Shown here: one piece after another, positions 30,417 through 45,614 of the stretch
Layout of the letters: every line of letters begins with the position of its first letter
How positions within the stretch are numbered: position 1 is the first letter of the stretch
Sequence record: MZ501085
DNA: 49,715 nucleotides
Strand: one strand, 5' to 3'
Source: Escherichia phage JohannLBurckhardt
The notes under the pieces: model-generated
Told to the model about the DNA's origin: nothing
The model's input: the letters and a program-made list of their open reading frames with translations, nothing else
The model's database searches: none
Translations under genes and position numbers: made by a program

Positions 30417-30418
30417 AT

Positions 30419-30925: not shown

Positions 30926-31672
30926 ATGGCTAAAGACATTCTTGATAACTCAACAATCGACGGTATCGAGCAGGTTGATGAAATGGACTTTCACGAATTG
31001 CAGCACGGCAAGTATTCAGACATAGCCCTGCGCTCAGGCGGTCATTACCAGGCCGTGAAACCTTGCCAGTATTACAAGGTTACAGGCAACCGTTACGCCG
31101 GAAGCAACACTCCAGATGTTGTCCGTGACCTTTGGGCTACTCCGCGCGATGTTGTCGCGTATATGGAAAGCCGCTACGGTAAATATGATCTTGACGCTGC
31201 GGCTAGCGAGGACAATAAAGTCTGTGAAAAATTCTACAGCAAAGAAACAAACTGCTTAAAGCGTTGGTGGGGTAGCAAGAAGCACGTATGGCTGAATCCT
31301 CCATATTCGAATCCAGATCCGTTTGTGCTAAAGGCCATTGAGCAAATGGAGCACGACAATCAGATCGACATATTGCTTCCAGCCGACAACTCAACGGCAT
31401 GGTTTAGCGACGCACAAAAGCACGCTGCTGAAATTATCTGGATCACTGGCGAGACCTGGAAAGATGAAGATGGGCGCGAGTATTCACGAACCGGACGATT
31501 AGCGTTTATTTCCGGTCTGACAGGTGAACCAGTTAGCGGTAACAACAAGGGCAGCGTAATTTTTGTTATGCGCAAACTGAAAGAGGGTGAGCAGCAACAA
31601 ACGCACTACGTGAAAATTAGCGAAATCTGCCCGTCCGTAAAAAACAAGCGAGCAAAAGCAAGGAGTTTTTAA
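30926..31672 (+). CDS. dam: DNA N6-adenine methyltransferase (Dam-like)
   Basis: 248 aa; catalytic NPPY motif (LNPPYS). Confidence 0.8.
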   Translation: MAKDILDNSTIDGIEQVDEMDFHELQHGKYSDIALRSGGHYQAVKPCQYYKVTGNRYAGSNTPDVVRDLWATPRDVVAYMESRYGKYDLDAAASEDNKVCEKFYSKETNCLKRWWGSKKHVWLNPPYSNPDPFVLKAIEQMEHDNQIDILLPADNSTAWFSDAQKHAAEIIWITGETWKDEDGREYSRTGRLAFISGLTGEPVSGNNKGSVIFVMRKLKEGEQQQTHYVKISEICPSVKNKRAKARSF

Positions 31673-31785
31673 TGAAAGATGATGTTGCAGCACTTGGAAT
31701 TTTGTGCGCCTTTATGATTGGCGGCGGCTTTTGTTCTTATGCGCTCCTGGCGCTCATTATCAAAATCGGAGAGTTGATCCAATGA
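31672..31785 (+). CDS. small hydrophobic peptide (37 aa)
   Basis: ATG overlaps dam TAA (TAATG), AAGGAG 7 nt upstream; MKDDVAALGILCAFMIGGGFCSYALLALIIKIGELIQ; stop overlaps next ATG. Confidence 0.4.
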   Translation: MKDDVAALGILCAFMIGGGFCSYALLALIIKIGELIQ

Positions 31786-32030
31786 CAGAGAGAAATGTTG
31801 CACTTAACGAAACAGGAATGTTTTTGCTGTATCGCGCTATGGTATGCCAGGCGCTTGATCTGAATCCGCACATTAAGGAAGTGATAGGAGTTGACCCGTG
31901 GGAATATTCAAGCGCCCTTGATATGAGCTTTGAAGAAACAGCGCGGCTACCTCTTGAAAAGTGGCATATCAAGATTGCTGATGATCTTGATGAAATGTGG
32001 CAAGACCTTAAAAAACGAACGGCTCACTAA
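31782..32030 (+). CDS. hypothetical protein
   Basis: 82 aa from ATG 31782 (RBS GGAGAG). Confidence 0.5.
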   Translation: MTERNVALNETGMFLLYRAMVCQALDLNPHIKEVIGVDPWEYSSALDMSFEETARLPLEKWHIKIADDLDEMWQDLKKRTAH

Positions 32031-32031
32031 A

Positions 32032-32074
32032 TAGCACGAATTGCTAAAACTGCCCGGCGAAAGTCGGGCATAAT
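32032..32074 (+). promoter_or_regulatory. palindrome-type promoter element (site e)
   Basis: TAGCA-cgaat-TGCTA, 22 nt, CATAAT; hairpin TGCCCG/CGGGCA; leader CCAACGAAAAC. Confidence 0.6.
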
Positions 32075-32106
32075 TATTTCCAACGAAAACCACTTAGGAA
32101 AACGAA

Positions 32107-32298
32107 ATGAAAATCTACAGCAAACGCTCTTTCAAAATCGCGCAGGAATTAGCACGCGAGGCGGTAGCCGGAGGCAGCAAAGAGGGCTACGGTTTCGATT
32201 GGGATATAGCAATGATTTACTTGCAGGTGGCGACAGGTCACGCTCCAATCGAGAAAATCGAGCAGGTTGACAAGGTTATTGAGGAGGGATTGATTTAA
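32107..32298 (+). CDS. hypothetical protein
   Basis: 63 aa; RBS; follows site e. Confidence 0.5.
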   Translation: MKIYSKRSFKIAQELAREAVAGGSKEGYGFDWDIAMIYLQVATGHAPIEKIEQVDKVIEEGLI

Positions 32299-32546
32299 TG
32301 AAGGTTGAGCAAGGCCGCGAGGCCGTTTGGAATCACGCCAAAGAAACCGGAATGGCAGACGATATAGCACGAATTGCTAAAATCTTTGATCTGGCTGATG
32401 TTAGTATTATCAGCAACGGGAAAATGACTTACTTACACGAGAGGCCACGCAAAATGCACCGCGTGCCAGCAATCCCGACAAAAATTGACTTCAAAGAAGC
32501 AATGGCAAAAATCAGAGAGCCGAAAAAGTATTATAAAGGAGAATAG
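32298..32546 (+). CDS. hypothetical protein (contains an internal palindrome copy)
   Basis: 82 aa; ATG overlaps upstream TAA; motif site f lies in-frame inside this ORF. Confidence 0.45.
   Translation: MKVEQGREAVWNHAKETGMADDIARIAKIFDLADVSIISNGKMTYLHERPRKMHRVPAIPTKIDFKEAMAKIREPKKYYKGE
32365..32407 (+). promoter_or_regulatory. intragenic palindrome-type element (site f)
   Basis: TAGCA-cgaat-TGCTA, 22 nt, TAGTAT (TATTAT at 25 nt). Confidence 0.4.
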
Positions 32547-32551
32547 TTATC

Positions 32552-32623
32552 ATGTGGCGCTTGCTTGTTCTTCCAATGCCCGTTATCATTGCCGCCGTTG
32601 TTATGTACGCACTTGTTATGTGA
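32552..32623 (+). CDS. possible 23-aa hydrophobic peptide
   Basis: ATG 10 nt after AAGGAG; MWRLLVLPMPVIIAAVVMYALVM; speculative. Confidence 0.25.
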   Translation: MWRLLVLPMPVIIAAVVMYALVM

Positions 32624-32640
32624 TTTAAGAGGAAAAATTA

Positions 32641-33759
32641 ATGATTCAGAAAATGACAGATCAGCAGTTTAAAGACGCGCGAGCGGAGGGCAAAACCTAC
32701 AAGCAGATCGCGGACGAGTTCGGCTTGAATGTTCGCACCGTTGAGCGCCGCGCGGCACGCCTTGCTCGCCAGGGTGAGACTGACACGAAAGGCGCACCAG
32801 GTTTTGCGGTTGTTCGTGAGTCAGTCCTGACCCGCGCAAACGGCGAAGAAGTGATGCGCTGGACTATCACCAACAAAGATAAAGAGCAGTTGGAGGCGCT
32901 CATGCAAGCCGCGATGGACGCATTCGCTGAGGAAGTGCCGCGCCTGGAGCCTCAGCAGGAAAGCCGAAAGGACTACAGCGAAAGCCTGGCGCTATACCCT
33001 ATTTTTGACATGCACATTGGCGCAATGGCTCACAAGCATGAATGTGGTGAGAATTGGGATACAGCAACAGCCGAGAAAGTCATGAATGACTTCTTTGATT
33101 ATGCGGTTGAGTGTGCGCCAAATAGCGAGAAAGCCGTGCTCCTGATTGGTGGAGACATGCTTCACAGTGACGGCCTTGAGGCTGTAACACCTGCCAGCGG
33201 TCACGTTCTGGATCAGGATAGCCGATACGCCAAACTTGTTTATGTCGCAATCCGAGCAACTCGCCGCGCTATCTCATTGATGTTGACCAAGCACAAAGAG
33301 GTTGAAATTCAGGTGATCGAGGGCAATCATGACCAATCAGGCATGATCTGGCTACGCGCAGCAATGGCGGCGGCATACGAGGACGAGCCGCGCGTGATGG
33401 TTGATGTTTCTCCTCGCGTAGTGCATCACACGCAGTATGGTAAAACATTCCTCGCTTATCATCACGGTCACACCGTGCGCAAGCCGGAAACGTTATTGAT
33501 GATGTGCGCGGCAGATTGGCGCGAGGATTTTGGCAAATCAAAATCAATGTATGCTCATGTAGGCCATTGGCATCACCAGACCGTAACAGAAACCAGCCTG
33601 GGGATTGTTGAAGTTCATAGCACAATGGCGGCCAAAGATGCGTATGCGGCACGCGGCGGCTGGCGCTCTCGTCGTCGCGCTGCGGTTATCATCTACGATA
33701 AAGAGCACGGAGAGATCGGGCGCTTTATGTTCTACCCTGAAATGATGGAGTCAAAATAA
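32641..33759 (+). CDS. calcineurin-like metallophosphoesterase with N-terminal HTH domain
   Basis: 372 aa; DMH...GGDMLHSD...GNHDQ phosphoesterase motifs; N-terminal KTYKQIADEFGLNVRTVERR HTH-like. Confidence 0.65.
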   Translation: MIQKMTDQQFKDARAEGKTYKQIADEFGLNVRTVERRAARLARQGETDTKGAPGFAVVRESVLTRANGEEVMRWTITNKDKEQLEALMQAAMDAFAEEVPRLEPQQESRKDYSESLALYPIFDMHIGAMAHKHECGENWDTATAEKVMNDFFDYAVECAPNSEKAVLLIGGDMLHSDGLEAVTPASGHVLDQDSRYAKLVYVAIRATRRAISLMLTKHKEVEIQVIEGNHDQSGMIWLRAAMAAAYEDEPRVMVDVSPRVVHHTQYGKTFLAYHHGHTVRKPETLLMMCAADWREDFGKSKSMYAHVGHWHHQTVTETSLGIVEVHSTMAAKDAYAARGGWRSRRRAAVIIYDKEHGEIGRFMFYPEMMESK

Positions 33760-33929
33760 TGAAAGTTAAATGCGTTGAGAATTCATCTAAAACACTGCCT
33801 TACTACGAGGGCTTTGTGTACGAGGCCGATCAATTACCTGGCGGGATGTACAAGATTAAAGATGAATCAGGGCAGCATGTTATTGCGCCGCTAAAAGGGT
33901 ATTATCTGGAGTTTTTACAGATTGATTAA
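33759..33929 (+). CDS. small protein (56 aa), MK.IR-family-like N-terminus
   Basis: ATG overlaps upstream TAA (TAATG), GGAG 8 nt upstream; not in ORF track (<60 aa). Confidence 0.45.
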   Translation: MKVKCVENSSKTLPYYEGFVYEADQLPGGMYKIKDESGQHVIAPLKGYYLEFLQID

Positions 33930-33952
33930 CATTTAATTTCATGAGCTTACAA

Positions 33953-33981
33953 AGGGCTGGCGTTTGCTAGCCCTTTTTTTA
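33953..33981 (+). terminator. rho-independent terminator
   Basis: AGGGCT...AGCCCT hairpin followed by 7 T. Confidence 0.8.
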
Positions 33982-34056
33982 TTGTTTCGCTTTTGCTCAT
34001 TGCTGGTTAACATACACTCACTTAATTATTGACATTTTGCACGAGGAGGTTAGATC

Positions 34057-34272
34057 ATGAGAGAATTTTTAAACGCAGCAACCACCAGCACCGGAGGAGC
34101 ATCACTGACGGGCGCGGCGACGGGGCAAATGACCATTGCGGTTGCTGGTCTTATCCTAATGGCGGCCTTTGGCTTTTGGGGCGCGTATCTGCGCTGGAGG
34201 GATAGCAAGGCGCTGCGAGAGGCTTTGGATCGTGAAGATATCAAAGAGGCAATTCGAATCAGGGGGAAATAA
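34057..34272 (+). CDS. holin (pinholin-like)
   Basis: 71 aa; Gly/Ala-rich first hydrophobic segment plus second TMD, charged C-terminus; immediately upstream of SAR endolysin. Confidence 0.6.
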
Positions 34273-34274
34273 TC

Positions 34275-34769
34275 ATGAGTTTACAGAGAAGCGCGGCATA
34301 CGCTTTATTTGGCGCTGCGCTCTCGCTAACTTCTCCACTCCTGGAGGAGATCGAGGGCATTCGCTACAAGCCTTATAAAGATATTGCCGGAATCTGGACA
34401 GTATGCGCGGGTATTACCGGATCTGACGTTGTTCTTGGTAAGACGTACACGCAGAGAGAATGTGACGCACTTCTTGCCAAGCATATCGGTATTGCAAAGG
34501 CAGAAGTCGATAAGCGCGTTAAGGTTGAGATACCGGACACTATGCGTGCGGCGATGTATAGCTTCACTTACAACGCTGGTACTGGAGCGTTTCGAAAGTC
34601 AACCATGCTCAAGAAGATCAACAATGGTGATCTTTATGGGGCGTGCGACGAGCTTTGGAAATGGACGTATTACTACAATCCAAAAACGGGCAAGCGCGAG
34701 AAGTCCAGAGGGTTAAAAAACCGTCGCGCGGTTGAGTATAAATATTGCACTAAGGATCTGAAAAAATGA
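34275..34769 (+). CDS. SAR endolysin (GH24 lysozyme)
   Basis: 164 aa; catalytic triad spacing E-x8-D-x5-T ([16 protein letters not shown]); N-terminal weakly hydrophobic Gly/Ala/Ser-rich signal-anchor-release segment. Confidence 0.85.
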
Positions 34770-35161
34770 AACGATTAGCTTTAGCGGTACTGGTTGCCGC
34801 CTCTCTTTCTGGTTGTTCGGCGTCAAGCGCCCTGAGTGGTTTAGTCGGCAGCAAGCCGGAAATTACAGCACAGGCAGGAGCCGAAAACGTAAAGCAAACA
34901 GTAGGCGTAACGGCAAAGAATGACGAGAGCAGCAAGCAGGAAAACACGATCAAGGATTCGCAGGTTGGCAAGGTTGACTCCTCCAACAAAAAGAAGGTGA
35001 GCACTTCAAGCATCCAGGCTGAGACAATCACAGCCGACAAGATCGAGATCAGAAACAGCGAGAGCGATTTGTATGTGATATTCTTTGCGCTGGCTTGCTT
35101 ATTTGTTGCTGGCTTTGCCGCTGGCGTTTTTTGGAAGGGCAGAAAAAACAAAGGGGCATAA
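34766..35161 (+). CDS. unimolecular spanin (u-spanin)
   Basis: 131 aa; lipoprotein signal with lipobox LSGC at N-terminus and C-terminal TMD ([22 protein letters not shown]). Confidence 0.75.
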
Positions 35162-35173
35162 TGCCCCTTTTTT
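35141..35173. terminator. bidirectional rho-independent terminator
   Basis: A tract, GGGGC-ataat-GCCCC, T tract; between convergent spanin and - strand genes. Confidence 0.85.
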
Positions 35174-35293
35174 CATTCCAGTAGTCTGACGTTGACCAAT
35201 ACAACTCCGTCCCCGTCGTGCAGGTTGTGCTCCTTTGCCGGATTAGCTCGCATATCGCTGTACAGGATCAGGAGAAGCGCCGCAATCATTTCG

Positions 35294-35686
35294 TCATGCG
35301 ATACCGAATTTACGGCGCAGTGCTTCATAATCGCATCTATTAGGCTTTGTGTTGAATAATTCATCGTCGCTTAACTCGTCAAGGTGAAACAGATCGTAAA
35401 TATATTTATTGCTCTCACCCTCCAGGCTATACAGTTCAAATCCAAACGGCCTCTTGTGCGAGCCGTAGCACGTCACTACGCCTTTATCTATCCCAAGATA
35501 ACCCAATGTAGCCATGCGTGGGATAAACTCAAGAGAAACGCTTGAGGCGAATTTCCGAGGCGTCATATTTGCGGCTCTTGCGAGCCGCTCACATTCTTTG
35601 TGCTGAAAAACAAATCTGGCTAAGTGCTGGCGATTAAACCAATCGTAGCTTTCGCAAAACTTATACAGATCCAGCAGAAACATCAT
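35294..35686 (-). CDS. hypothetical protein
   Basis: 130 aa; ATG 3 nt after stop of upstream P-loop gene. Confidence 0.5.
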   Translation of the reverse strand: MMFLLDLYKFCESYDWFNRQHLARFVFQHKECERLARAANMTPRKFASSVSLEFIPRMATLGYLGIDKGVVTCYGSHKRPFGFELYSLEGESNKYIYDLFHLDELSDDELFNTKPNRCDYEALRRKFGIA

Positions 35687-35689
35687 TTA

Positions 35690-37267
35690 TCACCCCATTA
35701 AAGCAGGATTCACAAACACGCGCCCATTCGTGAGGCATACGTAATTAAGATCTTCAAGGATTGGAAGCAAGTGATCCTCAATTCGCTTCATCACACCAGC
35801 CTGACCCAGGAACGGACGAACCTTGCGCACGGATTCGTAAATCGCCCGTGCAGTGATAGCGCCCTTATTGGCTTTTCCGAGCCTTGTTATCGTGTCGATA
35901 ATCTTGATCAACTCCGCATCCTGACCAGCATGACCGGAAGCATTTGCAGCGCTGATGTAGGTCTTGCTCAACTCCTGGAACATCAAGAGCGCCTCCTGCA
36001 TCGTCTCAACGTCAATCTCTCGTGACTTTGTGGCGGTTCCGTTAACATCCTGCCAGTTTCGGATCGTGTGAATAACGGATGCCAGGCGAATGACTTGTTT
36101 ATCCATTTTACCCAATGCGCCGCGTAGCATGGTGTGAGAATATTCTCCTCCGTCTGCAAGCTTTGGCTCCATTTCCTGGCGTGCAATGTTGAGCACCCGC
36201 ATAGCGGAGCGGCTAACCTTCAATGAAACGGATTGCTCCGTCATGATATTGTGGATCAGCTTGTAATAGTCCGCTTTAAGACCTGCATCAACTGGCGTGT
36301 AGGTTGTGTCTCCTTTGTCGTCAACAAACTTACGGCGGCCTAAGAATGATTCCTCTCGCACAAGCAAGAAACGTTCAGAAACACCGATACCACGAGCACC
36401 AGCCTCCATAATGCCGCTGATTGTTTCGTCCTGCGCAATCACAGCCATGCAACCTAGAGCCGTAAAGCTCATGTTGTTTTCTGCATTTGCACGGGCGATG
36501 GAAACGTGACCGCTATCCCAAGCCTTTAGCACCAATTCGCTGTTAGTCTTGCGCTCGCTATTGGCGTATGTCAGTCCGAGCAGTGAGTTGATACTTGTTG
36601 CCTCGTCCGAGATAACAGCAAAGTTACCCTGGCGAAAGTTGATTTTAGCCAAACCCTCTGGAGTGGTATCTGAAACAGGAAACACAACGTCGCACAGTTT
36701 AGCCAGCTTTTCCTCGTACTCCTCTTTCTCCTCGTAAAGCGCAGCGTACTCAGTGCCGGAGCGCTCGCTCTTTAATTCCTTTGCGATCCCGTTGAGTTTC
36801 GCCTGAATCTTTTTGCGCTCTTTCTTGCGTTGCTCGTTGATTCGCTCAACCTCTGCAACAATCGGAGCAATCGCCATTGAGTTGATCGCAGATTTACCAG
36901 TAGACGGCGGCTGGCTTGTAACAACGTATAGCGCCGTTGGCTGATCGGTTCCGTGGTATTCAACGGAGAATCTCCCGAGCATCGCGGCAGACACGCAGCC
37001 TACAAAGTGCATATAGGCAGATGAAACAGGGAATTGCACAGACTCCGCCAGGCTGCGAGACAACTTGCCTACAACGTCGCAATCGTTGCCGAGGGAAATA
37101 ACAGGGTATTTGTCGTTTCCGCTGTTAATGTCCTTCACGTCACCCCAAAAACCAGACGAGCGAGAGTATCCGTTTGCCTGGATTGCAACCTTAACGGCGC
37201 TCAAGCCTTGAGCCTCAGCCGTTGAAATGATTTGTTGTGGTGTCAGCGTGGATTGTTCAAAAAACAT
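35690..37267 (-). CDS. P-loop NTPase (putative replication/helicase-type protein)
   Basis: 525 aa; Walker A SQPPSTGKSA and Walker B-like VISDEAT; RBS AAGGAG; downstream of motif site n. Confidence 0.5.
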   Translation of the reverse strand: MFFEQSTLTPQQIISTAEAQGLSAVKVAIQANGYSRSSGFWGDVKDINSGNDKYPVISLGNDCDVVGKLSRSLAESVQFPVSSAYMHFVGCVSAAMLGRFSVEYHGTDQPTALYVVTSQPPSTGKSAINSMAIAPIVAEVERINEQRKKERKKIQAKLNGIAKELKSERSGTEYAALYEEKEEYEEKLAKLCDVVFPVSDTTPEGLAKINFRQGNFAVISDEATSINSLLGLTYANSERKTNSELVLKAWDSGHVSIARANAENNMSFTALGCMAVIAQDETISGIMEAGARGIGVSERFLLVREESFLGRRKFVDDKGDTTYTPVDAGLKADYYKLIHNIMTEQSVSLKVSRSAMRVLNIARQEMEPKLADGGEYSHTMLRGALGKMDKQVIRLASVIHTIRNWQDVNGTATKSREIDVETMQEALLMFQELSKTYISAANASGHAGQDAELIKIIDTITRLGKANKGAITARAIYESVRKVRPFLGQAGVMKRIEDHLLPILEDLNYVCLTNGRVFVNPALMG

Positions 37268-37295
37268 CTTAAAGTCTCCTTGTTGGTTGACCCGT

Positions 37296-37338
37296 ATTAT
37301 AGGTCAACCATCTTACAGCCTTTTAGCAATTCGTGCTA
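37296..37338 (-). promoter_or_regulatory. palindrome-type promoter element (site n)
   Basis: On - strand TAGCA-cgaat-TGCTA, 22 nt, TATAAT inside GGTTGACC/GGTCAACC inverted repeat; TAG is stop of upstream gene. Confidence 0.6.
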
Positions 37339-37581
37339 TTTTAAACGTTCAACTTTTGCTAATAATCTTCCGTCAACTATTGAGTGACACTCAAGCGTTT
37401 CAGGATCAAAATCAAGCGACTTATGGAAGGTGTGACCAATCAGCCACTTGTCGCCACGGTCACGTATAAGATAAACCTCCTCACCCTCAACCAGGCTTGA
37501 TGTTGTTCCGTACACGACGCGGAACCTGTTTTTGCGCATCGCGGCTGGTACGTGCTTTTGGTAGTCAACGCCTGTGATCAT
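37336..37581 (-). CDS. hypothetical protein
   Basis: 81 aa; ATGA overlap with upstream gene. Confidence 0.5.
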   Translation of the reverse strand: MITGVDYQKHVPAAMRKNRFRVVYGTTSSLVEGEEVYLIRDRGDKWLIGHTFHKSLDFDPETLECHSIVDGRLLAKVERLK

Positions 37582-37943
37582 GAATATTTAGCCTCAAAAA
37601 GATAAGAACCACCAGCAGAGAAACCAACCTCCTCCCGATACAGAGTGAAGCGGTCGCCGTCCTCGTCAAACACATAGCCAGCAACGCCGCCCAATACGCG
37701 CCCTTGTTCGATCTGGTAGCGCTTGCCAGCCTTGAACGTTTTCTTGTGCTTCATGCTATGGTCTACCCAGGTGCATTTTATTGTTTTGGTCTTGATCTCA
37801 CGGAAATCATTAAAATTTGCGTTCTCCCACTTTGCGCCTTTGGTTAACTCCTTAACCTGGAAGGAACCAGTTTCAAAGAATTGAACCTCGTCAACAATAC
37901 GACCTTTCATTAACTTGTTGTCAGAGTTGCGGATAACTTTCAT
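37578..37943 (-). CDS. hypothetical protein (MK.IR / AGK.Y small-protein family)
   Basis: 121 aa; RBS AAGGAG; contains FKAGKRYQIEQG segment shared with several + strand small proteins. Confidence 0.55.
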   Translation of the reverse strand: MKVIRNSDNKLMKGRIVDEVQFFETGSFQVKELTKGAKWENANFNDFREIKTKTIKCTWVDHSMKHKKTFKAGKRYQIEQGRVLGGVAGYVFDEDGDRFTLYREEVGFSAGGSYLFEAKYS

Positions 37944-37972
37944 GATTTGCTCCTTTCGTTTGATGTGGTTGC

Positions 37973-38015
37973 ATAATAGCGGATCTTATCGACCCGCTTT
38001 TAACAAAAAGTGCTA
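37973..38015 (-). promoter_or_regulatory. palindrome-type promoter element (site o)
   Basis: On - strand TAGCA-ctttt-TGTTA, 22 nt, TATTAT in AGCGG/CCGCT hairpin; leader CAAACGAAAGGAG. Confidence 0.6.
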
Positions 38016-38726
38016 TTTTGAGTTAGCCAGCCATACAGCAATAGCCAGGCCGCGAGGAGTGAGCGAGCGAATCAGTTTTGTTCGCGCTGATTTACCGCCT
38101 AATTTCTTCCAGCCTGGATTGTCATTCCCAACCGGATACACTGGCAAAGCCTCAGGCATCACAAAGCCGTTACCAGTCCAAAGGCAAGTTTGCTTATTGT
38201 AAGCGTCACTCGCTGGGATGATATCAGGAAAGGCAGGGTGAGCTTCATCCTTGATATGGATGTAGCCGCCATAGTCGCACGGATGGAATTTATGATCCGG
38301 CTTGCGCCATAGCGTTGACAGCTTGCCTACAGGGTTTTCGATCATGTACGGCACGCCGAAATGATCAGCAATGTCAGCCGCAATCTTGCAGGTGTTTGCC
38401 GCCTCAACCTGGAATTTCGGATTCAACTCAGCTTTGCGCTTCCAGTGGCGAGAGCCGGAGTTAGCCAGGTCTGTGCATGGCGGGAATGCCATAATGAAAT
38501 CAGGCTTGCCGTAAAATTCCATTTGCGCACGGTGGCGGAAATCGCTGTCAATCCATGCGTTAACATATTCGATGTTCGGATGCGTTACGCGCACTGATTG
38601 GTACGATCCGTGATCACCTTTATCGGCATTAAAGCAAATCACTTTGTAACCAGCTTTCGCCCACGGCAGAGCCGCATAGCCGGAGCCGTCGAACATTGAG
38701 AAAACCAGACCTTTGATGTTGTTCAT
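38013..38726 (-). CDS. putative DNA (cytosine-5)-methyltransferase
   Basis: 237 aa; motif order FSMFDGSG (motif I-like), PPCTD (PC motif IV-like), ENP (motif VI-like) with C5-MTase-like spacing; short for the family. Confidence 0.5.
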   Translation of the reverse strand: MNNIKGLVFSMFDGSGYAALPWAKAGYKVICFNADKGDHGSYQSVRVTHPNIEYVNAWIDSDFRHRAQMEFYGKPDFIMAFPPCTDLANSGSRHWKRKAELNPKFQVEAANTCKIAADIADHFGVPYMIENPVGKLSTLWRKPDHKFHPCDYGGYIHIKDEAHPAFPDIIPASDAYNKQTCLWTGNGFVMPEALPVYPVGNDNPGWKKLGGKSARTKLIRSLTPRGLAIAVWLANSK

Positions 38727-38736
38727 TTTTTAACCC

Positions 38737-39021
38737 TCAGAATGGGAAGCAACGCTTGCAAGCCGGATCGAATTCACAGCCGCAGTCATTTACAATCATG
38801 GTTGGATCGGCAAACATCGCTCCGCTTTCCATATCCATATCCATATCGCCAAGCGCATCATCCAGCGTGCGCAGTTTATAAGCAACCTCAAGCGCTGCCT
38901 CTTTATTCAGTCCAGCAGCCTCCGCTTCATGTAGGCGGGCAAAGAAACCATCTTGTACCACAATTTTCTCCTCTAAACTGGCGGCGCAATTGCCGCCTTT
39001 AAACCAATCAGGACTTATCAA
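38737..39021 (-). CDS. hypothetical protein (acidic, Cys-containing C-terminus)
   Basis: 94 aa; coupled to upstream gene. Confidence 0.5.
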   Translation of the reverse strand: MISPDWFKGGNCAASLEEKIVVQDGFFARLHEAEAAGLNKEAALEVAYKLRTLDDALGDMDMDMESGAMFADPTMIVNDCGCEFDPACKRCFPF

Positions 39022-39245
39022 GCTTTCCAGGTTTCGATATACATCGAATTTTCATCCAGGAAGTTAATCACGTCTTGCTTGCTGTACTGGCGCAGGGTGC
39101 AGCGCGGTGATGTTCCAACGGTGTAGCAGCCTTTACCCTCGGTGATGGTCACTTGCTTGATTTTCTCGCCTGGGATGTCGCACTTGATGATCACGCGATG
39201 GTGGCTATCAAGGGTTTTCATGATGTTTTCGGTTTTGAGTTTCAT
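39018..39245 (-). CDS. hypothetical protein
   Basis: 75 aa; RBS GAGGA; first gene after motif site p. Confidence 0.5.
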   Translation of the reverse strand: MKLKTENIMKTLDSHHRVIIKCDIPGEKIKQVTITEGKGCYTVGTSPRCTLRQYSKQDVINFLDENSMYIETWKA

Positions 39246-39276
39246 TCGTTTATCCTCGTTCGTTGTTGATGGCGCT

Positions 39277-39319
39277 ACTATAACGGGACGAAGCGCCGGA
39301 GTTTTAACAAAAAGTGCTG
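39277..39319 (-). promoter_or_regulatory. palindrome-type promoter element (site p)
   Basis: On - strand CAGCA-ctttt-TGTTA, 22 nt, TATAGT inside GGCGC/GCGCC inverted repeat; TGA stop of upstream gene abuts motif. Confidence 0.55.
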
Positions 39320-39586
39320 TCAGTTGTAGATAACACTTTTAATCTTCTTGATCTCGTCAACTAGCTCTTGTTCGTCGTGAATCATGGAGGGCGAGCACTC
39401 CCAACAAGCGGAGGGAAGTTTCTTGTTCTTGCCCTTAATCAGAAAGCCGCCCATTAACTCCCAATTGCAGATAAGGCGATCATCACGCATATCGTACAGG
39501 TTGAACAGGTTGCGACGCTCGCCACTAACGTAAATCTTCACCCCATTGTTGCGGCAGAATACGCGCAATTCTTTCGTCGCTCGCAT
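39320..39586 (-). CDS. hypothetical protein
   Basis: 88 aa; coupled. Confidence 0.5.
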   Translation of the reverse strand: MRATKELRVFCRNNGVKIYVSGERRNLFNLYDMRDDRLICNWELMGGFLIKGKNKKLPSACWECSPSMIHDEQELVDEIKKIKSVIYN

Positions 39587-39780
39587 TATTCACTCTCCAG
39601 TACAGTAACAGGTTCCAGGCGCTCCAGTACAACTTTAAAATCCGCAAAGAATGTCGGCCTACGTTCGGTTAGCTCGGTATAGGTGTCAATCGCTAGAGTT
39701 GCGCGATCACCTTCATAGCACACCACACGCTTTCCACCTGCGCGGCTGATTGCCACCACGCGATAGGTATTCTTGATCAT
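39586..39780 (-). CDS. hypothetical protein
   Basis: 64 aa; ATGA overlap. Confidence 0.5.
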   Translation of the reverse strand: MIKNTYRVVAISRAGGKRVVCYEGDRATLAIDTYTELTERRPTFFADFKVVLERLEPVTVLESE

Positions 39781-39980
39781 TAAATAACCTCCATAACAGT
39801 ATGCTCGTCACCAGCCAGTGACCAGAGAGTGTTAGTAAGTTGCTTCACTTTCCAGGTGAGGCCGGAGTGATAGCAGACCATTTCCTCAAGGTCGATTGTG
39901 ATCTCAATGCCTTTCTTGAAGATTCCAGGCGTCAGCTCTGGATTGCGGCGAATAACTTTAGCGTCTATCTGGTCTTGCAT
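39780..39980 (-). CDS. hypothetical protein
   Basis: 66 aa from ATG 39980 (RBS GAGGAA); longer track ORF start would lie inside the promoter element. Confidence 0.5.
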   Translation of the reverse strand: MQDQIDAKVIRRNPELTPGIFKKGIEITIDLEEMVCYHSGLTWKVKQLTNTLWSLAGDEHTVMEVI

Positions 39981-40012
39981 TTTTGATTCCTCAGTTTCGT
40001 TTTGTTGAGGCA

Positions 40013-40055
40013 ATGATACCGCATCGCATCTGACTGGTTTTAACAAAAAGTGCTA
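40013..40055 (-). promoter_or_regulatory. palindrome-type promoter element (site q)
   Basis: On - strand TAGCA-ctttt-TGTTA, 22 nt, TATCAT; leader CAACAAAACGAAACTGAGGAA. Confidence 0.6.
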
Positions 40056-40334
40056 TCACTTCATCATATGCAGATTGTTAGCGATAAACTTGACAACTTC
40101 ACGCAGTTGCTTTTCGTCAAAGATAGTCGCTGGCAATTCTTCTTTCAAATCCTGGTGCAGATAAACGTTTCCGTGCCAGGCGAGTTTGTCATGCTCGATG
40201 CGATAGCTACACATCCACTCACAATCGTTGTCAGCTTCCCAAATGCACAGAGCGGTGTAGTCGCCCAAATCCTCAACGGTTAACTCAATGCCGCGTTTCT
40301 TTGCCATGTTGAAAGTGGTCTTGCTGATGTTCAT
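40056..40334 (-). CDS. hypothetical protein
   Basis: 92 aa from ATG 40334 (RBS GAGGAAAA). Confidence 0.5.
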   Translation of the reverse strand: MNISKTTFNMAKKRGIELTVEDLGDYTALCIWEADNDCEWMCSYRIEHDKLAWHGNVYLHQDLKEELPATIFDEKQLREVVKFIANNLHMMK

Positions 40335-40365
40335 TTCGTTTTCCTCAGTTCGTTTCGTTGAATGC

Positions 40366-40409
40366 ATTATGACAAATCCTATCCGCTCTTTTTTTAGCAA
40401 AAAGTGCTA
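40366..40409 (-). promoter_or_regulatory. palindrome-type promoter element (site r)
   Basis: On - strand TAGCA-ctttt-TGCTA, 23 nt, CATAAT; leader TTCAACGAAACGAACTGAGGAA. Confidence 0.55.
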
Positions 40410-40424
40410 TTTAATCGGTAGTCA

Positions 40425-40525
40425 GTGATTTTGATGATTGCTTGACCACTTTTGCAATGATGTTTTTGATGTCCGTCAACTTTTGTGTGATTGTGATGAT
40501 TGTTGATGTTTTTTGATGTGATTTG
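40425..40525 (+). repeat. degenerate short tandem repeats (TGATG / TTTTGATG units)
   Basis: gattttgatgattg...caatgatgtttttgatg...gattgtgatgattgttgatgttttttgatgtgatttgaatg in AT-rich noncoding region. Confidence 0.5.
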
Positions 40526-40698
40526 AATGTGGGAATCAGCATGGCCTGGCGGTGTCGTTTTTGCGCTCTCGAAAACTCCGCCCTGTTATCTTCTGTTTGC
40601 ACTCGTTTCCTCTTGTTACCGAAAGTACGGTGGCGTAGTTTGTTCGTGTTTTTCGCGTAGCAGAAACAAAAAAAACTTTTAATTACCCTATAAACAAC

Positions 40699-40737
40699 TA
40701 ATAAAATCAATAGTTTATTTATATATATTATATTTGT
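40699..40737 (+). repeat. AT-rich conserved block, copy 2 (direct repeat with 21344..21384)
   Basis: TAATAAAATCAATAGTTTA identical 19-mer plus similar flanks. Confidence 0.7.
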
Positions 40738-40995
40738 TTTCACTACGTTATACTTGTTCCATATGGTATGGGGTGGTTATGGGATTTTATTATTGGTGGT
40801 ATTGGTTAATTTATAGGCATGTTCCGCTCAGGATGTGTGCGATTCATCATTTCGTTGTGGTTGCTTTGGGTGACATATACATATTTATTATGTCCTCCGA
40901 AAAAACTGTAACGGCTGTAACATGCAAAAAACAGAATTTATAATCATAAAAATCAACAACTTGCGATAAATTTTGTTTTTCGGCTCAAAAAAAAC

Positions 40996-41024
40996 TTGTG
41001 GAAACCGATTGTAACATGCATAAT
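40996..41024 (+). promoter_or_regulatory. candidate sigma70-like promoter for right-hand early operon
   Basis: TTGTGG - 17 nt - CATAAT; leader CACGAAACGAAC then GGAGG and ATG 41057. Confidence 0.4.
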
Positions 41025-41056
41025 GCACCACGAAACGAACAAGCGGAGGTAAAACT

Positions 41057-41482
41057 ATGTCAGATCAATCATTTGGCGATCAGTTGCGTGCAGCGGCGAG
41101 AATGTTGGCGAGTGGTGAGCGTGATGAGATTATCATGACCGACTACCAGTTACAGCAAGCGTCCGGCAGGGAGAAAATCAACCCAAGCCATATCCGTACA
41201 ACTATGGCGCGAGAGGTTCGCACCCTGGGAGCTATCAGCGTGAAGCGCATCACGGATCCGATTGGGTACGTTTGCACATTCAACCCTGACCCAAAAAAGC
41301 GAGCGATTGCCAGCGACGAGCTACCAGCAATCAAGGCGCGTGCGACTAACAAAGCACTGAAAGCGATTGCAGACGTGATGCCAAACCTCACAGACCTGGA
41401 GGGCGAGCAGTTGCAGGGTGCTATCATTGCGGTGCAGCGCTACCAGGATTTAATCAAGAAGCAAATCAACGAGGAGGTTTAA
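41057..41482 (+). CDS. hypothetical protein
   Basis: 141 aa; RBS GGAGG; first gene after AT-rich region. Confidence 0.55.
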   Translation: MSDQSFGDQLRAAARMLASGERDEIIMTDYQLQQASGREKINPSHIRTTMAREVRTLGAISVKRITDPIGYVCTFNPDPKKRAIASDELPAIKARATNKALKAIADVMPNLTDLEGEQLQGAIIAVQRYQDLIKKQINEEV

Positions 41483-41484
41483 TT

Positions 41485-41745
41485 ATGTGCAACGAGAAAA
41501 TCGATCAGCTTGTAGACGAAATCATTGAGGCGCACGACCGCGCCGGATTCAACTCTATCTTTATGGTATGCCCTGACGCTTTCGGCATTACAGAAAGCGA
41601 GCTTAAAGAGGCGGTTGAGCAGGTGGAGTCCGTACTCCGAACCGATAACTCTGGTGACGAAATCTTTTCAGCCTTGACTGCTTGCGATGGTGGCGGAGTG
41701 TTTACTCTTTCGCTTGTTAACGCAAACACGATCCTGACCATCTGA
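41485..41745 (+). CDS. hypothetical acidic protein
   Basis: 86 aa; strongly acidic. Confidence 0.5.
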   Translation: MCNEKIDQLVDEIIEAHDRAGFNSIFMVCPDAFGITESELKEAVEQVESVLRTDNSGDEIFSALTACDGGGVFTLSLVNANTILTI

Positions 41746-41753
41746 TTGGTAAA

Positions 41754-41796
41754 TAGCACTTTTTGCTAAAACAGCCCCGCGCGAGTGGGGCATAAT
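41754..41796 (+). promoter_or_regulatory. palindrome-type promoter element (site g)
   Basis: TAGCA-ctttt-TGCTA, 22 nt, CATAAT; leader CTCAACGAAACGAATTGAGGAG. Confidence 0.6.
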
Positions 41797-41829
41797 GCAC
41801 TCAACGAAACGAATTGAGGAGACTGCAAA

Positions 41830-41985
41830 ATGTTTACACTGATTACCTGGGAGCACGAAAACAGCGAGCCAGTATCCGTAACATACGATTGGCTGGCTCA
41901 GTGCTACAATATCGCCAAAAACGGTGGTTTCTACAAAGCGCAGATTGTTAACGAATTTGGGGTTGTTGAGTATGAGTTTCATTAA
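41830..41985 (+). CDS. small protein (51 aa)
   Basis: ATG 7 nt after GAGGAG, first ORF after site g; not in track (<60 aa). Confidence 0.4.
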   Translation: MFTLITWEHENSEPVSVTYDWLAQCYNIAKNGGFYKAQIVNEFGVVEYEFH

Positions 41986-42181
41986 TGCATGTGACGTCAA
42001 GCCTGGCGTTGTGTACCGCTCAAAATACACAGATCGGCTGTGGCGCTGGGATGGTGCAACTATGTGGACGAAAGGCGCGGGAGATGTGATTTGGCATGAA
42101 TCCGGCTGGCCTCACCCAACAATGACGCGCAAGGACATCGCTTATTATCTGGCAGTTGGCGAATTCGAGGAGGTTAAATAA
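41972..42181 (+). CDS. hypothetical protein
   Basis: 69 aa from ATG 41972, overlapping end of previous small ORF. Confidence 0.45.
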   Translation: MSFINACDVKPGVVYRSKYTDRLWRWDGATMWTKGAGDVIWHESGWPHPTMTRKDIAYYLAVGEFEEVK

Positions 42182-42369
42182 TGCTCAAGACGGTTCACCC
42201 TGACACGCACGGCGACGAAATGAGAATCTACGGGCGGCATGACAAGATCCACATTGACGGATGCTTTGACGGCGAGCGAATCGCCTGGCGTGGAATATAC
42301 ACGCATAAGCAAGCGCGTGAGATTGCAGAGAGACTTAACGACCTTGCAGACATTATGGAGGGCAAATAA
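42181..42369 (+). CDS. hypothetical protein
   Basis: 62 aa; TAATG overlap. Confidence 0.5.
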   Translation: MLKTVHPDTHGDEMRIYGRHDKIHIDGCFDGERIAWRGIYTHKQAREIAERLNDLADIMEGK

Positions 42370-42554
42370 TGATCAGATTCAACGTTGACTATCCAGGCTT
42401 TATTGCTGGCAAGACCTATCAAGCGAAATACGCAGCGCACCCATTCTACGGCTACCTTGCAATCAAGGTTGTGGACGAGGACGGCGATGCGCGTTACCTG
42501 GCGATTGAGTTGCTGGAGGACGGATCCATTGTTGAGGTGGATGATGAAGATTAA
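42369..42554 (+). CDS. hypothetical acidic protein (MK.IR / AGK.Y family)
   Basis: 61 aa; FIAGKTYQ motif; acidic C-terminus. Confidence 0.5.
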   Translation: MIRFNVDYPGFIAGKTYQAKYAAHPFYGYLAIKVVDEDGDARYLAIELLEDGSIVEVDDED

Positions 42555-42894
42555 CGCACAAGCACGCAACTACGCGCTAAAGCACGGGATTCACATCTAC
42601 GGACTGACCAACGAGCAGAGCCGCGCCTTGGTTTTCTACGATATCGCCAGCGGAACAAAGCTATGCACTTACAAGAGCTACAGCGATGATAACCCATTGC
42701 AGAAGTCGCTCAACTACAAGATGAAGCCGGAAACCTGGCAAGCGATGCCGGATGATATCCGCACGGCTCAGGGTGTGCAAAAGGCAATCGAGGCTATGGT
42801 TGCAACTGGCACGGCGCGACCGCTGGACGAGGACGAGCTAGCGGAGGCACGCAACAAGATCCTCAGTCGGTCAACTGGAGTTAAGATCATATGA
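42541..42894 (+). CDS. hypothetical protein
   Basis: 117 aa from ATGATG 42541 (RBS GAGGTGG); N-terminal extension in track overlaps previous gene. Confidence 0.5.
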   Translation: MMKINAQARNYALKHGIHIYGLTNEQSRALVFYDIASGTKLCTYKSYSDDNPLQKSLNYKMKPETWQAMPDDIRTAQGVQKAIEAMVATGTARPLDEDELAEARNKILSRSTGVKII

Positions 42895-42955
42895 GCAGTT
42901 GGCACAATGAGCACGTCATGCAATTCTACCGCCAAAGGATAAAGAAAATCCTCAA

Positions 42956-42998
42956 TAGCACGAATTGCTAAAACACCAGATCGGGGTTGCGCTATAGT
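42956..42998 (+). promoter_or_regulatory. palindrome-type promoter element (site h)
   Basis: TAGCA-cgaat-TGCTA, 22 nt, TATAGT inside GGGGT/ACCCC inverted repeat; leader ATCGAAACGAAAC. Confidence 0.6.
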
Positions 42999-43034
42999 AA
43001 CCCCATCGAAACGAAACACGCTGAGGAGCACAAA

Positions 43035-43202
43035 ATGAAATCTCGCAAATACCGCAACATCTTCAACAACCTGACATACTGGCTGGAGGACGGCGCTGTC
43101 ATGGTTAGCAACGGCGAGCAAACAAATAAATCGCTGTTAAGCGCAGAGGAGTTTTTCATTGCGGTAGGCCGTGACGTTCTGGTACTGATTGAGGGGGAAT
43201 AA
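43035..43202 (+). CDS. small protein (55 aa)
   Basis: ATG 43035 after GAGGAGCA; first ORF after site h. Confidence 0.45.
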   Translation: MKSRKYRNIFNNLTYWLEDGAVMVSNGEQTNKSLLSAEEFFIAVGRDVLVLIEGE

Positions 43203-43205
43203 TAC

Positions 43206-43448
43206 ATGCTGTCAATTCGAAACTGGTTTATGCGCTTCATCGGGAAAGAGGTTGAGGCTTTCGGCTACAACATTCCGGCAAACTTCAAGCGTGCCTGCCC
43301 TGGCAATGCCAGCGGGGTTTATTGGGAAATGCCAGACGGCACATACTGGTTCACGATAATTTCTGGAATGCCGATCCAGGTTAGTGAGCGCGACTATGAG
43401 CGCGGGACGTGGTTTAAAGCAATGCTTGAAGTAGGGGAGGAATTTTAA
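43206..43448 (+). CDS. hypothetical protein
   Basis: 80 aa. Confidence 0.5.
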   Translation: MLSIRNWFMRFIGKEVEAFGYNIPANFKRACPGNASGVYWEMPDGTYWFTIISGMPIQVSERDYERGTWFKAMLEVGEEF

Positions 43449-43984
43449 TGATCAAATTTGAGCTTTGGGGTTACACGTACCATCTGCGCGGCACTTACGG
43501 CGTTGCAATCGTTGACCTGGACGGCACGCTTTCTGACGGCACGCACCGATTGCACCTGCTACCAACAAAGGACTTGCACCTCACCGAAAGTTGGAGCGAG
43601 TTTAACAAGGCTGCTGTAAACGATAAGCCGATTCAGAGCACGATTGATGTTGTGCGTAACCTTTGGCGTGCTGGAATGGGCGTCGTTATCCTGACTGGTC
43701 GCAGTGACGAGGTGGAAACCGACACTATCCTTTGGCTCGACCGCCACAAGGTGAAATATGACTGGCTTATCATGCGCCGCGCAGAGGATAACCGCAAAGA
43801 CACCGTTATCAAAGAGGAGGTGTTGCGTGCAATCGGTCTGCATCATATTACGTGCGCCTTTGACGATTCGCCAAACGTGATCAGCCATTTTCGCAGCCTG
43901 GGAATCACAACCTATCAGGTGACGGAATACGACAAGCCGCACTCTCATTTACAGAGTCACGGCGTGGATGAATTAGATGGATAA
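43448..43984 (+). CDS. HAD-superfamily phosphatase (polynucleotide 3'-phosphatase/nucleotidase-like)
   Basis: 178 aa; motif I VDLDGTL (DxDGT), later ILTGR and FDD motifs. Confidence 0.6.
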   Translation: MIKFELWGYTYHLRGTYGVAIVDLDGTLSDGTHRLHLLPTKDLHLTESWSEFNKAAVNDKPIQSTIDVVRNLWRAGMGVVILTGRSDEVETDTILWLDRHKVKYDWLIMRRAEDNRKDTVIKEEVLRAIGLHHITCAFDDSPNVISHFRSLGITTYQVTEYDKPHSHLQSHGVDELDG

Positions 43985-44189
43985 GATCGTAACCTGGATT
44001 TTCGGATCGGTGATTACCGCTCTATCCGTCCTGCTGGTGCTCATAATTGGGGCGGCGGTATACATGGCAGCGAGCGACGATTACACCTGCGAGAAAACAG
44101 GCCGCCAGGTTCTTGTGATGATTCCGGCTGGTAAAGTAATGGTTCCTATCATGCAGGACGAAACTATTTGCAAGAGGGTTGAGAAATGA
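43977..44189 (+). CDS. small membrane protein
   Basis: 70 aa; N-terminal TM helix. Confidence 0.5.
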   Translation: MDKIVTWIFGSVITALSVLLVLIIGAAVYMAASDDYTCEKTGRQVLVMIPAGKVMVPIMQDETICKRVEK

Positions 44190-44401
44190 TTGTGACGCAC
44201 AACGTAGAGCAGAGCGAAAACACCGCGCAGGATATGATTGCCGGAATGACGCCAAAATCTCACAGAATGGTGCGAGTGTGGGGTTTTCAGGGCAATGTAA
44301 GCCAAACGCTCAAGGAAATTTTAGACCTGCCACAAGTTGATACAGCGCTTGTGGGGGTGCATACAAACGAATATGTTTCTTTCCACATTGTGACAAAGTG
44401 A
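44186..44401 (+). CDS. hypothetical protein
   Basis: 71 aa; ATGA overlap. Confidence 0.5.
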   Translation: MIVTHNVEQSENTAQDMIAGMTPKSHRMVRVWGFQGNVSQTLKEILDLPQVDTALVGVHTNEYVSFHIVTK

Positions 44402-44407
44402 GGACTC

Positions 44408-44617
44408 ATGATCTTGAATGTTGCCTTTGCCAATCCGAGAGGGTGCAATATTTACGGCTTCAAGGTTGGCGCAGCGGTTAACGCCAGGCGCGACGACAAA
44501 GGGAGGCTCATAGTAAAGGCTCCCAAAACTGGAGTTGATATGTGGATAAAGGAGAACGGCGTACGGCTATTTATCCGCTCAATGTCGGGGCAAACGCTAG
44601 CGACTTTCACAAAATAG
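44408..44617 (+). CDS. hypothetical protein
   Basis: 69 aa; stop TAG is first triplet of motif site i. Confidence 0.5.
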   Translation: MILNVAFANPRGCNIYGFKVGAAVNARRDDKGRLIVKAPKTGVDMWIKENGVRLFIRSMSGQTLATFTK

Positions 44618-44657
44618 CACGAATTGCTAAAACGCGCTCCGCCAGGGGCGCTACAAT
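44615..44657 (+). promoter_or_regulatory. palindrome-type promoter element (site i)
   Basis: TAGCA-cgaat-TGCTA, 22 nt, TACAAT; leader resembles that of the 21665 promoter (TACAATGCAC..ATACCAAC). Confidence 0.6.
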
Positions 44658-44689
44658 GCACCCATACCAACCAACGAGAGGAAAGCAAG

Positions 44690-44923
44690 ATGCAAGCAAA
44701 GATTAAAACCATTGGCGGATACACCGGAATGAAAAACGTCAAGCTGCCGCTGACACTAAAGGCGGTTTCCAGTGGTTACGGCACGGTTGATGTGAGCATG
44801 GCGGAACTGATTCACCACGGCTATGATTTTGCAGCAGGTCAGGCAGACGAAATCCCGGACTGCGAACCAAACGCTCAAACACTAACTTTCATCATCGGAT
44901 CAGAGGCGGAGATTGTAGAATGA
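44690..44923 (+). CDS. hypothetical protein
   Basis: 77 aa from ATG 44690 (RBS GAGAGGAAA). Confidence 0.5.
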   Translation: MQAKIKTIGGYTGMKNVKLPLTLKAVSSGYGTVDVSMAELIHHGYDFAAGQADEIPDCEPNAQTLTFIIGSEAEIVE

Positions 44924-45150
44924 AATATCAGATTTTTAAGGCAGTAGACAAGCTGGACGGCGATGTATCACTTTTCGCTTTTGATGAGCAAGAAAACTAC
45001 ACAGTCATTTATCACTCTGACTACATGCTTGGAAGGCTGGTTGAGGAGATTAAATCCGGCAAAGGTTGCCACTGGTCAGCGGATTCAATCAGCTACCCGC
45101 GCCGCAATGATATGGTTAATCCGGTTCTGCTTTGCGAGATTGAAGCATGA
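44920..45150 (+). CDS. hypothetical protein (MK..I family-like)
   Basis: 76 aa; ATGA overlap. Confidence 0.5.
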   Translation: MKYQIFKAVDKLDGDVSLFAFDEQENYTVIYHSDYMLGRLVEEIKSGKGCHWSADSISYPRRNDMVNPVLLCEIEA

Positions 45151-45338: not shown

Positions 45339-45342
45339 CAAG

Positions 45343-45573: not shown

Positions 45574-45614
45574 CACTTTTTGCTAAAGACTTTCCGCGAG
45601 GCCATTGATATAGT
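45571..45614 (+). promoter_or_regulatory. palindrome-type promoter element (site j)
   Basis: TAGCA-ctttt-TGCTA, 23 nt, TATAGT inside GAGGCCA/TGGCCTC inverted repeat. Confidence 0.6.

Follow-up and report, generated by a model that had tools for sequence, protein, structure and literature searches.

The stretch analysed here, the window, is 49,715 nt of Escherichia phage JohannLBurckhardt (MZ501085), and it is a near-complete Drexlerviridae genome of the Henuseptimavirus type. We examined a gene at 38013..38726, which an earlier note made from the sequence alone had proposed to encode a compact C5-cytosine methyltransferase in addition to Dam. The listing of open reading frames (ORFs) and the translation confirmed a 237-aa ORF at this position and located it on the minus strand, running from an ATG at 38726-38724 to a TAG at 38015-38013. 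The plus strand across the same interval is stop-rich. An in-frame TAA sits two codons 5' of the ATG, indicating that the ORF cannot extend further upstream. A Shine-Dalgarno-like element before the start codon shares bases with the stop of the preceding 94-aa ORF (Table 1). A promoter and terminator scan of 35300..41500 gave counts that were not above those of shuffled sequence; therefore, no transcription unit was assigned.

The translation contains motifs I, IV and VI of the C5-methyltransferases (Table 1). Their conservation was assessed in a wider set of 82 diverse members of the PHROG 757 type and in a narrower set of 46 closer relatives. In the wider set, C84, E130, P132, P149, Y176, W183 and P191 are invariant, and F81, P82, T85, N131, D174, K178, T180, R220, S221, P224 and G226 are at least 90% conserved. 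Motif I has the FxGxG form (F12-D-G14-S-G16), in which G14, S15 and G16 are invariant among the closer relatives. It was aligned by hhalign to motif I of E. coli Dcm ('FIDLFAGIGG'), and the same stretch also aligns with motif I of M.HaeIII and DNMT3B. The predicted nucleophile, Cys84, falls on the PC motif in alignments with M.HaeIII, DNMT3B and E. coli Dcm, and it corresponds to C82 of the Dcm of phage KarlJaspers. Glu130 of motif VI aligns with E128 of the Dcm of phage K42 and with the 'LENV' of E. coli Dcm. All three motifs named in the earlier note were thus present, but ENP lies at residues 130-132, about nine residues away from the position of about 121 given for it. The match of residues 4-236 to PHROG 757 'DNA methyltransferase' (E=2.5e-85), together with the invariance of C84, E130 and P132, argues that these motifs are not chance matches.

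Table 1. Features of the methylase locus and of the associated dam region in the window
Feature	Residues or length	Coordinates	Strand	Basis
Probable compact orphan DNA (cytosine-5) methyltransferase gene, phage 'Dcm-like' family (PHROG 757)	237 aa	38013..38726	-	
Shine-Dalgarno-like GAGGG, 7 nt before the methylase ATG		38734..38738	-	sequence reading
Motif I, SAM-binding loop, FSMFDGSG	9-16	38679..38702	-	translation
Motif IV, PPCTD, predicted nucleophile Cys84	82-86	38469..38483	-	translation
Motif VI, ENP, Glu130 (ENV equivalent)	130-132	38331..38339	-	translation
Motif VIII-like strand, KQTCLW, in place of canonical QxRxR	178-183	38178..38195	-	
Putative minimal target-recognition region, mostly loop	184-219	38070..38177	-	
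Motif X-like element, RSLTPRG, leading into the C-terminal helix	220-226	38049..38069	-	
T1-type Dam N6-adenine methyltransferase gene, NPPY in 'VWLNPPYSNP'	248 aa	30926..31672	+	Pfam PF05869 E=2.5e-62
VRR-NUC nuclease gene	138 aa	30419..30835	+	Pfam PF08774 E=4.4e-14
Small ORF	75 aa	39018..39245	-	
Small ORF, preceding the methylase gene	94 aa	38737..39021	-	
Small ORF	121 aa	37578..37943	-	
Small ORF	81 aa	37336..37581	-	
DUF3987 protein gene	525 aa	35690..37267	-	Pfam E=7e-41

The C-terminal part of the protein departs from the usual pattern, since neither the canonical motif VIII (QxRxR) nor the canonical motif X (GN[AS]V) is present in the 237 residues. The place of motif VIII is taken by KQTCLW, which includes the conserved K178, T180 and W183; K178 aligns with K175 of K42 Dcm, and the AlphaFold2 (AF2) model has a beta-strand at residues 180-185. 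The motif X-like RSLTPRG, with R220, S221, P224 and G226 conserved, lies where the model has helices at 214-221 and 225-235. By its sequence, this element may be equivalent either to GN(A/S)V or to the motif X of DNMT3 (GRSWSVP), and it resembles the latter more than the bacterial form. From their position between motifs VIII and X, residues 184-219 would be the target-recognition region. F188, P191, G210, G211 and K217 are conserved inside it, and it is modelled as coil with two short helices, with a lower predicted local distance difference test score (pLDDT, 68-83) at residues 201-220. Only about 35 residues separate the motif VIII-like strand from the motif X-like helix, against at least about 80 residues in the usual target-recognition domain, and this short gap is a feature of the whole family. 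This supports the minimal recognition region that the earlier note had suspected. The C-terminal 117 residues alone gave no match to Protein Data Bank (PDB) sequences at E<=10, so the equivalences of motifs VIII and X could not be fixed by sequence.

Homologues of the protein are numerous. They form more than 3000 clusters at 90% identity, and an exhaustive profile search (E<=1e-3) gave 2154 clusters at 50% identity. A homologue is carried by 1500 of 50,697 phage records, including phages of Escherichia, Klebsiella, Salmonella, Vibrio and other hosts. Nearly all members are 200-260 aa long and match over their full length, indicating that the shortness of the 237-aa protein is the norm of its family; the description of the protein as unusually short does not apply within that family.

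The predicted structure (pLDDT 90.3; predicted template modelling score 0.89) has the C5-methyltransferase fold. The top Foldseek match was DNMT3B (E=1.2e-6). In the fold comparison, DNMT3B again scored highest (13.9, with 193 residues aligned), followed by the phage carboxymethyltransferase CmoX (13.0), DNMT3A (12.5), the prophage methylase 3g7u (12.1), M.HhaI (11.2), Shigella Dcm (11.0) and M.HaeIII (10.8). M.HaeIII was also the closest single-sequence match in the PDB (E=0.06). The catalytic domains of DNMT3A and DNMT3B share with the phage protein a very small recognition region, although sequence identity is only 14-20% and DNMT3 differs in being a CpG reader that works as a DNMT3L-assisted tetramer. 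The patterns of DNMT3 motif VIII (xxxW-GN) and motif X (RS-W/L-S/T-xP) also look similar to those of the phage protein. The recognition architecture resembles that of the Dnmt3 catalytic domain more closely than that of E. coli Dcm.

We then compared the locus with those of related phages. Over the 1.8 kb compared, it shares ~92% identity with Escherichia phage IsaakIselin (BASEL Bas10; Drexlerviridae, Tempevirinae, Henuseptimavirus), whose genome of 49.9 kb is close in size to the window (49.7 kb), and the values for Henu7, BubbaBully, Samwise and several Enterobacter phages are 88-91%. The orthologue in IsaakIselin, bas10_0052, is already annotated 'Dcm-like C5 cytosine methyltransferase' and stands in the same gene order as in the window; the counterpart genes of Henu7, BubbaBully and Samwise, nearest relatives at ~89-92% nucleotide identity across the locus, are annotated as DNA methyltransferases. 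The annotation of bas10_0052 is 777 bp long (258 aa), that is 21 codons longer, and overlaps the upstream gene, an extension that the TAA precludes in the window. Given that most family members are ~230 aa long, the longer annotation is probably a start-codon miscall. IsaakIselin also has an extra ORF at each methylase gene: bas10_0036, of 279 bp, separates VRR-NUC from dam, and bas10_0051, of 207 bp, directly follows dcm. The window has gaps of only 90 nt (30835..30926) and 69 nt (37943..38013) at these places, and the megablast match to IsaakIselin falls into two pieces. On these grounds, both counterparts appear to be absent from the window, as small accessory-gene indels at the two methylase loci.

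Another orthologue is the Dcm of KarlJaspers (Bas06, bas06_0055; Drexlerviridae, Hanrivervirus), which shares 69% identity over the full length (236 vs 237 aa). Its 711-bp gene has the same location in the leftward block, after a DUF3987 helicase and two small ORFs, and its partner genes on the other strand are the same as in the window (helicase, VRR-NUC and Dam). The phage belongs to another genus, and the 31% of residues that differ include several of the putative recognition region (186-205). Phage K42, whose genome is 95.4% identical to that of KarlJaspers, was used in a study of retron Ec86 (bioRxiv 10.1101/2023.08.16.553469; also cited as Wang et al., Cell Rep 2024;43:114857). In that study, all four K42 mutants that escaped the retron had a disrupted 711-bp dcm, a C-to-A substitution located 9 bp before the dcm start was present in escape mutants, and expression of K42 Dcm was toxic only when retron Ec86 was present (bioRxiv 10.1101/2023.08.16.553469). 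The multicopy single-stranded DNA (msDNA) of cells expressing K42 Dcm had a high content of 5-methylcytosine (5mC), as determined by liquid chromatography-mass spectrometry (LC-MS) with a synthetic standard, and 5mC was not raised with the C82A/E128A/K175A/K176A variant (bioRxiv 10.1101/2023.08.16.553469). Mutating the CCTGG of the msDNA stem-loop to AATGG, ACTGG or CATGG abolished the retron response in all three cases (bioRxiv 10.1101/2023.08.16.553469). The mutated K42 residues correspond to C84, E130, K178 and Q179 of the window protein; the fourth position, Lys in K42, is variable across the family. Phage Dam methylases have also been named as retron triggers (PMC12640716).

Two further phages bear on the specificity of the family. 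Pantoea phage vB_PagS_AAS23 (Sauletekiovirus), which has another host and belongs to another genus, encodes an orthologue, gp52 (235 aa, 61% identity), in the synteny of the window. We counted 142 CCWGG sites in the 50 kb examined, and the strong purge of GGWCC and CCSGG described below for the window is not seen there. AAS23 DNA is reported to be Dam- and Dcm-methylated, on the basis of a digest panel that included EcoRII and MboI (PMC8004638). Klebsiella phage KP36 (Webervirus) has 155 EcoRII sites, all of which were uncut; the 2013 paper credited the host Dcm with this resistance and recognised no phage cytosine methyltransferase (PMC3620542). Webervirus phages are among the homologue-bearing records (~49-50% identity; the records checked are of other members of the genus). 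The attribution to host Dcm may need to be revisited.

We determined the frequency of restriction sites across the window (1..49715), with expected counts taken from a maximal-order Markov model. CCWGG (140 observed, 133 expected) and GATC (304, 299) occur at about the expected frequency, and GCGC is likewise not avoided (429, 433). Other sites are depleted or lacking: GGWCC (0, 27), GGSCC (0, 14), CCSGG (4, 24), GGCC (63, 153), TCCGGA (0, 25), GCGCGC (2, 29) and GGCGCC (1, 19). There are no copies of AGGCCT, GCATGC, CCGCGG, GCCGGC, CTGCAG, CAGCTG or GTGCAC, and many other 6-bp palindromes are wholly missing. This pattern fits a phage that sheds most type II sites and retains the two classes covered by its own methylases. 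The sparing of CCWGG while CCSGG, GGCC, CTGCAG and CAGCTG are purged argues against a loose CC, CWG or CCNGG specificity. For protection at CCWGG and GATC, the site statistics are supportive but not decisive. The strong purge of GC-rich palindromes is not seen in T1 or AAS23, and it suggests a long history of contact with numerous type II systems in Klebsiella, Enterobacter and Escherichia hosts.

Taken with the orthologue literature, these observations make it highly probable that the gene encodes a functional orphan S-adenosylmethionine (SAM)-dependent DNA (cytosine-5) methyltransferase of the compact 'phage Dcm' family, the likeliest target being the inner C of CCWGG. Here, orphan means that the enzyme has no cognate restriction enzyme. 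For the window we observed the ORF, its motifs, its predicted fold, its family membership, the synteny and the site statistics. Formation of 5mC, triggering of the retron and resistance to EcoRII come from the work on orthologues, and by analogy with them the window protein would behave alike and share a CCWGG specificity. As the nearest relatives already have the gene annotated and the family has been characterised experimentally, it is already known both as a phage 5mC methylase and as the retron Ec86 trigger, and the discovery value is small. A modest point of interest is the apparent 5-bp specificity of an enzyme that has ~235 aa and next to no recognition domain.

From standard C5-methyltransferase chemistry and the invariant residues, the catalytic steps can be proposed as follows. 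The FxGxG loop (F12-G16) would bind SAM, and base flipping would extrude the target cytosine from the helix. Cys84, in the PC motif, would then attack C6 of the flipped cytosine while Glu130 of ENP contacts N3/N4; after transfer of the methyl group to C5, beta-elimination would free the enzyme. Target reading would fall to the very small region around residues 184-219 plus the catalytic loop, with the inner C of CCWGG as the most likely target. Replicated phage DNA would resist EcoRII-type nucleases that cut CCWGG, independent of host Dcm, and Dam would give the same protection at GATC. We thus predict that the phage DNA resists EcoRII-type and MboI/DpnII-type cleavage whatever the methylation of the host. 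The protection would come at a cost: in hosts with retron Ec86 (Eco1), methylated CCTGG in the msDNA stem-loop would trigger abortive defence, and the phage is predicted to be blocked by such hosts, for example E. coli BL21.

The relation to E. coli Dcm and M.EcoRII needs some care. The enzymes belong to the same class, have motifs I, IV and VI in the same order and presumably make the same product (C-5mC-WGG), but E. coli Dcm has 472 aa, against 237 aa in the phage protein. In E. coli K-12, vsr overlaps dcm, whereas the ORFs flanking the phage gene have no Pfam family and there is no Vsr partner. 'Dcm-like' is a functional label for a protein without significant sequence similarity to E. coli Dcm. 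We also considered whether the protein could be a truncated Dcm and dropped the idea, because the hhalign alignment to E. coli K-12 Dcm reaches motifs I-VI only. No gene for a cognate restriction endonuclease was recognised beside the methylase gene, the neighbours being 75-121 aa long and without a Pfam family above threshold.

Several observations weigh against an inner-C CCWGG methyltransferase. Sequence searches give limited help: the Pfam family PF00145 scored 15.9 bits against a cut-off of 22 (E=0.0088, residues 8-94 only), an NCBIfam scan of the 237-aa protein found no family, and a profile of the 46 relatives found no match among PDB sequences at E<=0.01. PF00145 was reached at E<=0.01 by 12 of the 46 relatives (best 1.3e-6), and the phage-specific PHROG library gave an unambiguous match for the protein itself. 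BLASTP of the phage protein against E. coli Dcm was not significant (E=4.9), and hhalign with the 82-member profile aligned only residues 7-138 with 88-232 of E. coli Dcm (E=0.004, 8.7% probability); with a shallower family profile, motif IV alone was aligned to the K-12 enzyme. As no similarity to E. coli Dcm extends beyond motifs I-VI, the CCWGG specificity is not transferable through homology of the recognition domain. The K42 study borrowed the CCWGG motif from E. coli Dcm and included no site mapping, and msDNA was poorly methylated in dcm+ MG1655 without the phage enzyme (bioRxiv 10.1101/2023.08.16.553469). The latter result implies a difference between the phage enzyme and host Dcm, be it of level, access or specificity. 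In addition, the EcoRII resistance of AAS23 and KP36 could come partly from host Dcm, and growth in dam+ dcm+ enterobacteria would likewise relax selection on CCWGG and GATC. Phage T1 lacks the methylase gene (best tblastn E=2.6), and it shows only mild CCWGG depletion (observed/expected 0.83). We set the T1 comparison aside as a test of specificity, given that it is a single genome with little palindrome avoidance of any kind and is therefore uninformative.

These points would be accommodated by an active C5-cytosine methyltransferase with a specificity unlike that of E. coli Dcm, whether it targets the other C of CCWGG, a motif that is shorter or less strict and includes the msDNA CCTGG, or a site read by a Dnmt3-like dimer. 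The missing homology to the Dcm recognition domain, the recognition region of merely ~35 residues, a best structural match (DNMT3B) that reads only CpG, and the poor methylation of the msDNA CCTGG in dcm+ MG1655 until the phage enzyme is expressed all point this way, and no site-level methylome for the compact family was found in the literature searched. We nevertheless regard this explanation as unlikely, as evidenced by the loss of the retron response in all three msDNA mutants, the failure of EcoRII to cut AAS23 and KP36 DNA, and the sparing of CCWGG in a genome that has purged CCSGG, GGCC, GGWCC, CTGCAG and CAGCTG. Taken more broadly, the idea that the compact phage 'Dcm' has a novel mode of DNA recognition, such as dimeric reading of the palindrome, or a specificity other than inner-C CCWGG, is given a small chance; it would explain why the phage enzyme triggers retron Ec86 and host Dcm does not.

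Another reading is that the transferred group is not a methyl group. In CmoX, selection of carboxy-S-adenosylmethionine (Cx-SAM) depends on a motif X Arg, found where M.HhaI has Asn304, plus an SPPC motif, and the phage family has FPPC and the near-invariant Arg220 in its motif X-like RSLTP. Enterobacterial hosts generally make Cx-SAM. In the CmoX paper, E. coli CmoA served as the positive control for Cx-SAM synthesis. A carboxymethyl transfer of this kind, giving a modified cytosine other than 5mC, is however the least credible of the readings considered here. LC-MS with a synthetic standard identified the product of the K42 orthologue as 5mC, Phe takes the place of the SPPC Ser in the phage protein, the equivalence of R220 with N304 of M.HhaI is drawn from a sequence pattern alone, and the scan of five flanking ORFs yielded no cmoA or ligase gene, only DUF3987 and a DUF5484 match below threshold. 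DNMT3 enzymes, which presumably carry an Arg at the same position of motif X (GRSWSVP), are ordinary SAM methyltransferases. Scarcely more credible is an RNA target, as for the Dnmt2-like methyltransferases that make 5-methylcytosine in tRNA, or a catalytically dead DNA-binding remnant: the fold search ranks DNA methylases above Dnmt2, the invariance of the catalytic Cys and Glu throughout the family is unexpected for a dead remnant, the orthologue has DNA methylation activity in vivo, and phage DNA carrying orthologues resists EcoRII. A DNA (cytosine-5) methyltransferase that makes 5mC, most likely at CCWGG, remains the preferred interpretation.

The second methylase gene of the window and the nuclease gene next to it were both located as the earlier note had described them, with matches to the Dam and VRR-NUC families (Table 1). 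The fold, the motifs and the characterised orthologues together uphold its proposal that a C5-methyltransferase-type protein is present in addition to Dam. The dam orthologues of IsaakIselin and KarlJaspers are annotated 'Dam-like N6-adenine methyltransferase'. The VRR-NUC gene begins 3 nt past the stop codon of the helicase, and 90 nt separate its end from dam. The slot is also filled by an ORF in IsaakIselin, KarlJaspers, T1 and AAS23; this ORF is labelled VRR-NUC only in AAS23, and in KarlJaspers and T1 it is annotated merely as a hypothetical protein. The window, IsaakIselin, KarlJaspers and AAS23 have a common gene order, in which a leftward block consists of the DUF3987 helicase, small ORFs and then dcm, and the helicase, VRR-NUC and dam lie on the other strand. 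The adjacency of VRR-NUC and dam is a conserved T1-type synteny with no functional tie to methylation indicated, and the methylase gene is a standard component of Drexlerviridae genomes. A restriction-modification pairing of the methylases with VRR-NUC was considered and rejected, since the nuclease lies 7 kb from dcm within the conserved helicase-nuclease-dam block.

The suggestion that the two methylases provide broad anti-restriction was overstated. Dam and a CCWGG-type methylase would cover only sites that overlap GATC or CCWGG, and for other palindromes the genome leans heavily on site avoidance. In the BASEL study, most Drexlerviridae were very sensitive to restriction-modification systems, and there was no simple link between their N6-adenine or C5-cytosine methyltransferase genes and resistance (PMC8594841).

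The remaining genes around the methylase lie on the same strand (Table 1). The DUF3987 protein gene, downstream of the methylase gene, is annotated 'putative helicase' in the relatives, and a DUF3987 gene beside the dcm block is retained in IsaakIselin, KarlJaspers, AAS23 and T1. None of the small flanking ORFs (75-121 aa) has a Pfam family above threshold. In the product of the 94-aa ORF there is an acidic stretch, DMDMDME, and, at the C-terminal end, a CGCEFDPACKRC motif that might bind metal.

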